In this document: positions 2,679 to 63,501 of the stretch, piece after piece | How positions within the stretch are numbered: position 1 is the first letter of the stretch | Layout of the letters: each line of letters opens with the position of its first letter | From: Nannocystis bainbridge | GTDB lineage: Bacteria > Myxococcota_A > Polyangia > Nannocystales > Nannocystaceae | NCBI RefSeq assembly: GCF_028368995.1 | Contig: NZ_JAQNDL010000001.1 | Coordinates: 832,001 to 896,000, forward strand | DNA: 64,000 nt | Direction of reading: 5' to 3' | Position numbers and translations under genes: made by a program | Notes under the pieces: model-generated | Databases searched by the model: none | What the model was told of the DNA's origin: nothing | Seen by the model: only the letters and a program-made list of their open reading frames with translations

Positions 2679-2772
2679 CGCCATGCCCCTCGGGACATGT
2701 TCTAAACGACATGCACATTCGCCCATGTCGTTTAGAACATGTTCAATAGGACATGTTCAATAGGACATGTTC
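2679..2772. repeat. 14-bp-period CATG palindrome array (7 units)
   Basis: CATG at 2682, 2696, 2710, 2724, 2738, 2752, 2766. Confidence 0.95.
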
Positions 2773-2815
2773 AAGGATCGCCGAGCTCCTCGCGGTCCGC
2801 GCCGCGCTCAGGCAC

Positions 2816-3000
2816 GCGAGCCCGTCGTCGTCGCTCGATGGTCCGCATGACGCCGCGAGCAGTCGCCAGTCCCCGAGCTCGTCGTCGTCGCTCGATGGGT
2901 CCGCATGACGCCGCGACCCATCACCAGGCCCCCGAGCTCGTCGTCGTCGCTCCATAGTCCGCAGGACGCCGCGAGCCGTCACCAGACCCCGGATTCGTCG
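2816..3000. repeat. Degenerate tandem repeat of about 58 bp, 3 copies
   Basis: GAGCTCGTCGTCGTCGCTCGATGGTCCGCATGACGCCGCGA-like unit recurring in the convergent intergenic space. Confidence 0.8.
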
Positions 3001-3067
3001 GTCCTGGCGCACATGCCCGATCGGCCATCTCGCCCCGGACCGCGCTAGCGCGCTCACCCTGGCGCGC

Positions 3068-3538
3068 TCACGCTTGCGGGTCGAGGTTGTCGCGCACCAT
3101 CTCGGTCGTGCGCGCGATCGCCTCGATCTCCTGCGGCGAGAACCCGGCGAACGCGCGGTCGAGCAGCGCGTTCGACACCTCGAGCAGCTTCGGCAGCGCC
3201 GCGTAGGCGCGGCGGGTCGGTCGCACCAGGATCGCACGGCTGTCGGTCGGGTCGGACGTGCGCTCGACCCAGCCCACGCCTTCGAGCGCGCGCACGAAGC
3301 GGCCGACCGTCACCTCCGACAGGCCCATCAGGTTCGCTAGCTGGCGGGCCGTCTGCGGCGCGCGCTCTTGAAACAGGTGGATGAGCACGCCGAGCTGCGC
3401 TGGCGTCACGTCCTGGAGCCCCGACTCGACCAGCAGGTCCGCCACCTTGCGCTCGAGCTCGCGGTGGATCCGCGACAGGTTGAGGTACGCCTCGCTTTGC
3501 AGCCGCCGCAGGCGCAGCTCGGACCCGGTCGTCGCCAT
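3068..3538 (-). CDS. MarR family transcriptional regulator
   Basis: 156 aa; TPAQLGVL, winged HTH LANLMGLSEVTVGRFVRALE, DPTDSRA motif. Confidence 0.9.
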   Translation of the reverse strand: MATTGSELRLRRLQSEAYLNLSRIHRELERKVADLLVESGLQDVTPAQLGVLIHLFQERAPQTARQLANLMGLSEVTVGRFVRALEGVGWVERTSDPTDSRAILVRPTRRAYAALPKLLEVSNALLDRAFAGFSPQEIEAIARTTEMVRDNLDPQA

Positions 3539-3729
3539 CGACCGCGCTTTCTACCAGAGCCGCGGCGCCGCAGGCTGCGCGTCCGATCGTCACCGCCGGC
3601 GCGCGCGAGCTGACAAAATGTCACGCTTACGCACCGGTCCACGTGTGGCAAGCCGCGCCACGTCAAACTCCCGCGAGGTCTTCACGTGTGGCATCCTGGT
3701 TGCACAGCCGTCGAGCGCTGCCACCGCCT

Positions 3730-62544: not shown

Positions 62545-62602
62545 ACCTTCGGACATGCCCGATCGGCCATGCCCTGCGGGACATGGCCCCGGGAACATGC
62601 CC
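62537..62602. repeat. 14-bp-period CATG array (5 units)
   Basis: CATG at 62540, 62554, 62568, 62582, 62596. Confidence 0.95.
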
Positions 62603-62616
62603 CGAGGGCCACCCGC

Positions 62617-63438
62617 TCACAGCGCCGCGATCTCGGCCCCCAGGCACCACGAACCGTACGGGTCGATCTTCGGCGTGAACAGGTTGACGTCGCGCAGGCC
62701 CGGCTCGTCGCACGCGTCGGAGCCGAAGTGGCTCTGCTGCGGCGGCGGCAGCGACGATGGGTCCGCGCCGAAGCCGACCGTCGACTTTTGATCGCCGCCG
62801 ACGAAGCCGACGCAGAAGCGCCCCGTCTCGATCACCGGCTGCTGCGCCTCGGCGATCTGCAGCGACCCGCTCGAGGCCGGCAGGCCGAGCGTCTCGGAGG
62901 TGTAGAGGACCTCCTGAAGATCGCCGCTGCGGATCTGGAACCGGACCCGCGCCTGGCCGGTCGCCGCCACCAGGGTGTAGTCGATCCGGCGCACGCGGAA
63001 CGGCGGGGCGACCGGAGCGTCGTAGCACTCCGCCCCGCGGACCTCGCCGGCGAGCCCGTTCAGGATGTTGCCCGCGCCGTAGCACCACAGCGGCTCGACG
63101 CAGTTGGCCGGCTCGTAGTGGTGCAGCTCGGCGGTCTGCGGCCCCCCGGTGGTCGTGTCCGTGTCGTCGGTGGTCAGCGCGATCGTCGTGGTCGTGCTCG
63201 AGTCGGTGCCGCCGATGAAGCCGGTGGTCGTGCTCGTGCTCGTCGTCGTGCTCGTGCTCGTGCTCGTGCTCGTGCTCGTCCCGGGCTCCGGCATCGTCGT
63301 CGGCTCGGCCGTCGAGCCCGCCACCGCGGTCCCGAGGGTCGACCCGGGCACGCCGTCGTAGGCCGGGTTCTCGATCAGGCACCCGCTCGCGGCCATCAGG
63401 CACCCTGCCAGCCGCGCGCGTCCGCCCTGAAGCCTCAT
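62617..63438 (-). CDS. Hypothetical lipoprotein with Thr/Ser stalk
   Basis: ASGC-LIENPAY N-terminus; (TS)n linker; Cys-containing C-terminal domain. Confidence 0.75.
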   Translation of the reverse strand: MRLQGGRARLAGCLMAASGCLIENPAYDGVPGSTLGTAVAGSTAEPTTMPEPGTSTSTSTSTSTTTSTSTTTGFIGGTDSSTTTTIALTTDDTDTTTGGPQTAELHHYEPANCVEPLWCYGAGNILNGLAGEVRGAECYDAPVAPPFRVRRIDYTLVAATGQARVRFQIRSGDLQEVLYTSETLGLPASSGSLQIAEAQQPVIETGRFCVGFVGGDQKSTVGFGADPSSLPPPQQSHFGSDACDEPGLRDVNLFTPKIDPYGSWCLGAEIAAL

Positions 63439-63477
63439 ACTGTCAATATACCACGTTCAGCGCCGGCCGGCCGCCGA

Positions 63478-63501
63478 CCACATGTCCCGAGGGACATGCG
63501 A
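63478..63501. repeat. 14-bp-period CATG pair
   Basis: CATGTCCCGAGGGACATG; cores at 63481, 63495. Confidence 0.7.

Follow-up and report, generated by a model that had tools for sequence, protein, structure and literature searches.

Among described bacterial repeats, the REP (repetitive extragenic palindrome) and BIME (bacterial interspersed mosaic element) families of Escherichia coli and Pseudomonas, including the REPIN/RAYT systems, come closest to the element reported here, a family of CATG-centred palindrome arrays in strict 14-bp register in a 64-kb stretch of the Nannocystis bainbridge genome (NCBI RefSeq assembly GCF_028368995.1, contig NZ_JAQNDL010000001.1, positions 832,001 to 896,000; hereafter the window) and throughout its assembly. 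Both are short, G+C-rich palindromes that occur in hundreds to thousands of copies, are extragenic, lie behind genes or between convergent ones, are often clustered and can form hairpins in the transcript. The cited accounts propose roles of REP/BIME elements in mRNA decay, termination and supercoiling (PMC3733652, PMC3184786, PMC3479197, bioRxiv 10.64898/2026.03.23.713779), and according to one of them the REP palindrome carries a conserved tag, GTAG or CGTC, on one side (PMC3733652). The arrays differ from these elements in their unit (14 bp, made of a 10-bp palindrome plus 4 bp, vs 20-40 nt in REP), in an exact register over up to 20 slots and in sharing a grammar rather than a sequence; they can also arise by substitution inside genes. 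They carry no GTAG/CGTC tag, and no Y1/RAYT transposase (TnpA_REP, PF01797) was found in the N. bainbridge assembly (0 matches, the control search matching in 6 of 14 reference genomes). The first-pass annotation of the window, made from the sequence alone, had set the arrays apart from REP/BIME and CRISPR elements, and this distinction holds, since tag, transposase and near-identical copies are all missing. A CRISPR array, with identical repeats of 24-40 bp and unique spacers, was rejected because here the units are 10 bp, the spacers 4 bp and the loci ~2000, of 2-7 units each.

Three further systems invite comparison. Intrinsic terminators, including bidirectional ones between convergent genes, likewise place a G+C-rich hairpin a few nucleotides past the stop codon and serve both strands, but the arrays lack a U tract, have a core that is conserved genome-wide, consist of several units and are rare or absent after tRNA and tuf-rpoBC genes. 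The met boxes of the MetJ repressor are two to five abutting short palindromes in strict register, bound by a cooperatively binding dimer; a genome has only a handful of them, in the promoters of a single regulon. The arrays resemble them as strict-register rows of a short palindrome and differ in number (~2000), in their position at gene ends and in having no known binding protein. In the cited descriptions, the cyanobacterial HIP1 (GCGATCGC) is a lineage-specific, over-represented palindrome found in genes and spacers and selected rather than transposed (PMC5861425, PMC4390886), but it consists of single octamers that are not tied to gene ends, and its periodicity is on the kilobase scale (PMC5861425).

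We found no publication on such arrays in Nannocystis or other myxobacteria in a search that left most subscription journals outside, in line with the first-pass annotation, which had not recognised a described element. In the RepRanger paper we met no mention of Myxococc, Nannocystis, Sorangium, tandem or CATG, and Rfam gave 0 matches at gathering score in the 64-kb window. REP-like hairpin repeats at gene ends are known, and the arrays look like a new, transposase-free relative of them. Judging from sequence, we favour, with confidence that is evenly balanced, a reading in which the arrays would be REP-like hairpin elements at gene ends that act in the transcript.

A 14-bp CATG register throughout the genome

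The window (positions 832001-896000 of contig C1, 72.4% G+C) belongs to an assembly, here G000, of 11,048,555 bp in 5 contigs that is 90.5% complete. It contains 262 CATG tetramers, whose mutual distances are 14 bp in 55 cases, 28 bp in 37, 42 bp in 27 and 56 bp in 13, with none at 13 bp and one at 15 bp. Genome-wide, 39,940 CATG give 3736 distances of 14 bp, 2073 of 28 bp, 1586 of 42 bp, 751 of 56 bp and 383 of 70 bp, compared with 72 at 13 bp, 262 at 15 bp, 79 at 16 bp, 83 at 17 bp and ~270-300 at multiples of 3, and the peaks at 14, 28 and 42 bp that had been predicted are present over neighbouring distances. The 14-bp peak is unique to CATG among all 16 palindromic tetramers, and the reversed form of a four-unit search pattern gave 0 matches. 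The 14-bp periodicity is real and far above chance. One-base indels are excluded from the arrays, since the genome-wide counts at 13 and 15 bp stay at background with no excess.

The four arrays cited at the first pass were all recovered with exact 14-bp steps (2682-2766 with seven CATG, 23886-23970 with seven, 46142-46212 with six and 62540-62596 with five). The number of loci in the window, given as about 29, came to 23 when counted by exact CATG at steps of 14, 28 or 42 bp; the higher figure probably included decayed units.

CATG is a palindromic tetramer typical of methyltransferase targets, and clustered methylation sites were one of three functions put forward in the first-pass annotation: CATG or RCATGY would be the target of an orphan methyltransferase and the arrays dense pads for a methylation-sensitive protein. 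Besides the type of tetramer, two observations agree with this, namely that CATG is not depleted or avoided (39,940 vs ~28,700 expected by base composition) and that one D12-class adenine methyltransferase is encoded, with no obvious restriction partner beside it. This enzyme, however, is shared with 22 of the family's 24 other genomes, array-free genera included, and was ruled out as an array-specific partner; it has no match among solved structures, and methylation leaves the 14-bp register, the gene-end position and the pairing signals unexplained. We consider this function very improbable. The D12 N6-adenine DNA methyltransferase itself (G000:C1:3591256-3592299, − strand; the sole PF02086 match) adjoins a TPR/BamD-like gene and looks like a conserved orphan methyltransferase.

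Unit grammar and uniqueness of the arrays

Chaining of CATG cores genome-wide gave 2074 arrays of at least two units, of which 954 have at least three (1120 arrays of two units, 347 of three, 276 of four, 210 of five, 91 of six, 24 of seven and 6 larger). The maximum is 16 CATG in 20 slots (G000:C3:1237916-1238185), an unusually A+T-rich array (~44% G+C over 200 bp) that begins ~25 nt past the stop of a small gene. A 'master' locus was sought among the largest arrays and rejected, this 20-slot array merely following its gene with nothing special nearby.

The claim that phase is kept across decayed units is borne out by 2073 slots defined solely by CATG at −14 and +14, of which 1670 hold CATG themselves; the others are mostly CCTG, CAGG, CATT or AATG. 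In these slots each core base is conserved at 92-94%, vs 67-74% in the flanks (left: G 0.71, G 0.67, then R with A 0.55 and G 0.31; right: Y with T 0.50 and C 0.38, then C 0.72, C 0.74), and the four spacer positions are nearly free and A/T-enriched. The per-slot base frequencies thus agree with the unit described at the first pass, a GGRCATGYCC-like palindrome plus four variable bases (GGRCATGYCC + NNNN; logo WNGGRCATGYCCNW). Spacer 4-mers are diverse, the commonest accounting for 86 of 2733, and this diversity, with a weak sense/antisense asymmetry (TTCG 31 vs 19, GAAA 22 vs 12), led us to reject stable tetraloops in the spacers.

Flanks and spacers differ from unit to unit within arrays, which rejects a simple tandem repeat or minisatellite, as the first-pass annotation had held. 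A second copy (≥90% identity, ≥80% of the length) exists for only 11 of the 607 arrays with at least four units, and a MITE (miniature inverted-repeat transposable element) or other non-autonomous transposon, which would need many near-identical copies, was discarded on this count. The best match between two arrays is typically ~80% identical over part of the length because of the shared grammar. Array pairs that are 100% identical belong to larger duplicated blocks near contig ends (G000:C2:832-2151 vs C5:711209-716697; C1:4522346-4526282 vs C2:3023411-3023484), which are probably large assembly-breaking repeats and not mobile arrays.

Such a grammar could also be that of a DNA lattice, the polymerising DNA-binding protein among the three functions first proposed: dimers of a clade-specific protein would sit on each 10-bp palindrome and polymerise at the 14-bp register, forming a roadblock or topological insulator between converging transcription units. 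It best explains the missing 13- and 15-bp spacings, agrees with a core that is better conserved than the flanks, and would supply the common trans-acting reader that one grammar in ~2000 unique, independently evolving arrays calls for. Three units make 42 bp, or four helical turns; the 14-bp period, however, sets successive sites on different helix faces. The unit fits RRRCATGYYY, the motif of p53-like DNA-binding domains, and a search for such domains gave 0 matches, but its control also matched nowhere. No candidate protein was found in searches that did not include a whole gene-content comparison of array-rich and array-poor genomes. We hold the lattice to be rather unlikely, and return to it where the pairing and evolutionary evidence bears on it.

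Arrays follow gene ends

Genes were called crudely with a third-position G+C (GC3) filter (6088 genes, ~73% of the genome), and all gene-context counts are approximate for this reason. Of the 954 arrays with at least three units, 419 are found between convergent, 329 between tandem and 46 between divergent genes, against a genomic background of 1261 convergent, 3154 tandem and 1139 divergent spacers; among the remaining arrays, 66 overlap the opening 60 nt of a called gene, largely because starts were called too long, 9 are close to a 3′ end and one touches the edge of a contig. Enrichment between convergent genes would also suit a DNA lattice. Array starts fall mainly 0-30 nt past the stop codon, the median being 27-39 nt and the mode 10-19 nt, and in tandem spacers they lie a median of 32 nt from the upstream stop vs 270 nt from the next start. 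Arrays occur within 100 nt of one fifth of the 6085 gene ends, and of 429 of the 774 that belong to convergent pairs 40-150 bp apart.

The stop codon tends to lie in the register of the array. Its T is found at −2, +12 and +26 from the first CATG in 20, 54 and 23 of 759 cases, neighbouring distances mostly having ~5-15; the weak +26 peak stands out little from the 15 cases at +25. TGA therefore often occupies the TG of a unit or pseudo-unit, as at window position 62540.

Pairing between neighbouring units and a candidate role at mRNA 3′ ends

A unit almost equals its own reverse complement and can therefore pair with any other unit; two adjacent units form a 24-nt hairpin (10-bp stem, 4-nt loop), a lone unit being a 10-bp palindrome. 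For ten arrays of the window, folding energies range from −30 to −71 kcal/mol (z from −2.7 to −9.2 vs shuffles). A nested palindrome spanning the whole array was rejected (z −1.5 to 2.7 for arrays of at least three units), although minimum-energy folds often draw one long hairpin.

In arrays of at least four units, terminal neighbour pairs have 4.77 Watson-Crick matches at variable positions vs 4.30 after permutation (z 10.2, 876 pairs), two-unit arrays reach z 15.0 (1003 pairs), and the complementarity extends into the outer spacers. Where both neighbouring cores deviate from CATG, they are reverse complements in 30 cases vs 6.7 expected (CAGG then CCTG 19 times, the opposite order 6 times) and identical variants in 19 vs 6.9 expected. 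The two arms within a unit show no covariation (z 1.4 and −0.1), and at the R/Y pair beside the core matching is rarer than chance (z −9.8), which means a preference for G..T and A..C units over perfect palindromes. When 403 arrays of tandem context are read on the sense strand, the stem positions that are not Watson-Crick pairs are G·U-type in 742 cases vs A·C-type in 487 (p 4e-13), with unskewed loops (G 0.235, C 0.231), and by unit class G..T makes up 0.257 vs 0.162 for A..C of 931 units. This strand bias is moderate evidence that the transcript may be under constraint. A DNA lattice predicts neither the sense-strand G·U bias nor the CAGG/CCTG compensation nor the complementarity of terminal pairs, and half-sites that match less often than chance are odd for a symmetric dimer site.

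Gene-end position, compensation between neighbours and the sense-strand G·U bias are our reasons for the RNA hairpin reading, and with the enrichment between convergent genes they make the RNA 3′-end element the best supported of the three functions named at the first pass. Neighbouring units would pair across the 4-nt spacer on either strand, and a row of 2-7 units would thus give mRNAs entering from either side one or more strong 3′ hairpins. These could define or protect mRNA 3′ ends by blocking 3′ exonucleases, as REP elements do in E. coli, and perhaps stop read-through between convergent genes. Each array would be built and kept in situ under the shared grammar of CATG core, GGR/YCC flanks and exact 14-nt register, and a clade-specific factor would read core and register on RNA or DNA. 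Such a reader is suggested because loops of 3 or 5 nt would be tolerated if hairpin energetics alone mattered, and because local templating cannot explain one genome-wide core in thousands of unique arrays.

Several observations weigh against gene-end RNA hairpins. The complete lack of a 13- or 15-bp excess is not explained by hairpins alone, and 84 of the 954 arrays lie well inside called genes. Folding potential is mostly generic: at −6.02 kcal/mol per unit, real arrays are only slightly more stable than assemblies of random units, which reach −5.80 (p 0.03, 400 of 689 arrays), and internal neighbour pairs are no more complementary than permuted ones (z 1.7, 821 pairs). The convergent arrays that served as control for the strand test (+ strand) are themselves skewed (1050 vs 1255, loops C>G), so compositional skews can yield G·U-type biases, and G..T vs A..C by position gave no significant result in convergent arrays. 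The arrays are not followed by a U tract (T fraction 0.28-0.31 for three positions past the last unit, then ~0.1), and for this reason they are not canonical intrinsic terminators; a hairpin-plus-T scan of window positions 1-20000 found 11 sites vs 5.1 ± 2.2 in shuffles, none at array-bearing gene ends. An array lies within 150 nt of only 5 of 102 predicted tRNA genes, and the 20-kb tuf-nusG-rplKAJL-rpoBC-rpsLG cluster (G000:C2:2116001-2136000) has no CATG-14-CATG pair, its spacers being array-free despite 277 bp after rplL and 363 bp after rpoC. Being rare after tRNA genes and absent from this cluster, the arrays are not the general transcript ends of the organism.

As to the tRNA genes themselves, about 30 of those predicted by aragorn form a dense one-strand cluster at G000:C2:2556665-2559233, and a tRNA-SeC gene lies at G000:C1:2481529-2481623.

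Arrays of the window

The arrays are listed by window position, with energies as minimum free energy (MFE). Relatives are those of the array-rich set, which consists of G000 and the five large same-genus genomes G001, G003, G005, G007 and G010, all in good synteny with G000.

1142..1193: three CATG in four slots, within the last 100 nt of an open reading frame ending at 1238 (+ strand).
2679..2772: seven units, 2 nt past the stop of the DUF790 gene 1472-2677 (+), with the MarR gene 3068-3538 (−) converging; last two units an exact 14-bp duplicate; MFE −45 kcal/mol, z −6.7.
6925..6962: three units between convergent genes 5841-6908 (+) and 7025-7558 (−); MFE −40.2, z −9.1; two to four units at this site also in G010, G005, G007 and G001.
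8807..8830: two units.
12318..12341: two units inside the MFS transporter gene 11637-13118 (−), coding frame continuous on both sides; the stretch is 36-37 bp in five of five relatives.
14320..14385: five units, 12 nt past the stop of the epimerase gene 13067-14308 (+), convergent with the M36 peptidase gene 14456-18202 (−); five in-phase CATG in G010, with nearly all remaining bases different.
19733..19798: four CATG in five slots (one CCTG), 7 nt past a stop at 19726 (+), between convergent genes.
21869..21892: two units between two + strand genes.
22878..22901: two units, 35 nt past a stop at 22843 (+), convergent with 22935-23888 (−).
23883..23976: seven units lying, on the − strand, between 24061-24600 (its stop) and the homocysteine S-methyltransferase gene 22935-23888 (its start); 42-bp internal direct repeat; MFE −70.6, z −9.2; orthologues with four units in G010, one in G005 and one in G007.
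29924..29975: four units, 16 nt past the stop of the Ser/Thr kinase gene 26060-29908 (+), convergent with 30083-31363 (−); 14-nt gap vs G010.
32413..32464: four units, 16 nt beyond the stop of the LytTR response-regulator gene 32480-33436 (−); four in-phase units in G010.
36531..36582: three CATG in four slots inside the Ser/Thr kinase gene 35250-37832 (−); 65 bp in four relatives.
40122..40145: two units in a spacer of lower G+C.
41166..41203: three units inside the NlpC/P60 gene 40324-41631 (−).
42302..42353: four units and a decayed fifth in the Mur_ligase_M domain of gene 41618-42859 (−).
46139..46218: six units, 7 nt from the stop of the methyltransferase gene 46225-46974 (−), convergent with 44941-45960 (+).
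52101..52166: five units immediately past the stop of 52168-53037 (−), before 51204-52148 (−); 79 bp with no indel in five of five relatives.
56166..56231: four CATG in five slots (one CAGG), 14 nt past a stop at 56152 (+), convergent with 56244-57128 (−); neighbouring CAGG/CCTG units in orthologues.
57738..57761: two units between + strand genes 56572-57618 and 57756-58487.
59782..59903: decayed array with in-phase CATG at 59785, 59813, 59855 and 59897, past the stop of a cytochrome c gene at 59755 (+).
62537..62602: five units, the first CATG overlapping the TGA stop of 60091-62544 (+), convergent with 62617-63438 (−); 79 bp with no indel in G010, G005, G007 and G003.
63478..63501: two units in a divergent spacer, a rare context (62617-63438 on −, next gene from 63564 on +).

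For the array at 46139..46218, extraction by anchors recovered 0-1 units in four relatives; the true difference is smaller than six vs none, because the G010 alignment shows three in-phase CATG plus decayed slots. Immediately past the seven-unit array at 2679..2772, about three tandem copies of a ~64-bp G+C-rich repeat occupy ~2790-3000, and the orthologous spacer of G010 has about five copies of a related, longer repeat.

Distribution and evolution of the arrays

A four-unit search pattern gave 869 matches in G000 and 409-527 in each of the five large same-genus genomes, vs 1-13 in five other genomes of the genus (64-88% complete), none in 14 other genera of the family and none in 16 genomes from other families of that class. 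Of 400 more genomes in the phylum, 15 had 1-5 matches, those listed being plain exact tandem repeats; among the matches listed for public named genomes, Nannocystis species recur and other taxa appear once or twice, and viral contigs gave 9 single matches only. The array-poor genomes of the genus hold the same type of unit at low density, with 62, 27, 20, 24 and 2 three-unit matches. The genus is cultivable, and the array family has a recent origin in one of its subclades. In the array-poor genome G009 there are many three-unit elements with a GGGACATGTCCC centre flanked by GCCATGGC-like units (for example C8:322500-322531 and C1:891460-891491), whose arms are roughly symmetric about the central CATG; this three-unit form may be an older version of the element. 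Orthologous gene ends in array-poor relatives have no arrays, the contexts there being too different for comparison.

Between array-rich genomes, some orthologous arrays keep their exact length while the spacers change (those at 52104 and 62540 are 79 bp in every relative recovered), and others differ in unit number, partly by 14-nt gaps. Automatic gap counts against G010 were too noisy at unshared arrays, and alignments were read directly. For 12 shared arrays with at least 60% of their cores kept (48 units, gapped ones left out), G000 and G010 agree at 98-100% of core positions, 56-79% of flank positions and 42-60% of spacer positions, with no indel. Four-fold degenerate sites are 83.6% identical (26,737 sites, 121 genes), but they are constrained themselves in a genome of ~95% GC3, and we claim no hypermutation. 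From this comparison, core and register are held while the rest of the array drifts freely. That core and register persist between species and spacers randomise would also be expected of a DNA lattice.

The array in the Mur-ligase gene (CATG 42305-42347) shows how an array can form. Four to five in-phase units are common to the six array-rich genomes, and none are found in the array-poor genomes of the genus or in other genera; homologues of the same family show no indel, and one more distant homologue from another family has small gaps nearby and no inserted array. The array was created by in-place substitutions, since the homologues of array-poor relatives are array-free with no indel, and it changes about half of 24 residues (VPSRGPALHGEDLAARAVEVS vs VMSRGACLKEHDLEAMSVRTS).

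An array made in phase inside a conserved enzyme gene could instead point to a selfish sequence with no host function, extended by hairpin-templated mutation (quasi-palindrome correction, 14-bp slippage) or by an enzyme, and surviving where it does little harm, behind genes and outside promoters and highly expressed operons. The variation of unit number between close species, partly by 14-nt steps, agrees with this, as do the exact 14-bp and 42-bp internal duplications, the neighbouring spacers that are more alike than chance (identity 0.30-0.34 vs 0.26-0.28, z up to 7.9), the depletion of arrays at divergent spacers, tRNA genes and the tuf-rpoBC cluster, and the ~20-fold expansion of their density in one subclade. 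But the arrays are unique, not copies, and no RAYT was found; local templating would give each array its own consensus instead of one genome-wide core and period, and templated copying should homogenise the spacers too, which stay diverse. Orthologues that keep unit number, core and register with spacers far less identical than four-fold sites look like the product of purifying selection. A selfish origin seems improbable to us.

Discussion

The CATG arrays of Nannocystis combine features of REP-like repeats with a register and a uniqueness of their own. With RNA hairpins at gene ends as the favoured reading, a DNA lattice is a serious rival, a selfish process a weaker one and methylation the weakest. 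Tentatively, and as a possibility only, the arrays could be the trace of a trans-acting protein or protein-RNA system of one Nannocystis subclade that recognises GGRCATGYCC in exact 14-nt register, on RNA hairpins or DNA, and selects for or writes this grammar, the ~2000 arrays having been built in situ where they are tolerated, in one case by substitution within an enzyme gene of essential type.

How mRNAs are ended and protected in G+C-rich bacteria that lack U-tract terminators is poorly understood, and the function and spread of REP-like repeats are still debated, even in E. coli. The arrays separate grammar from sequence and offer a natural system in which to compare RNA hairpins, protein lattices or both, and to look for what reads the register. 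The Mur-ligase array indicates that non-coding constraints can overwrite coding sequence. Since the family is recent and belongs to one subclade of a genus that can be cultivated, comparative genomics of array-rich and array-poor genomes could find the responsible gene.

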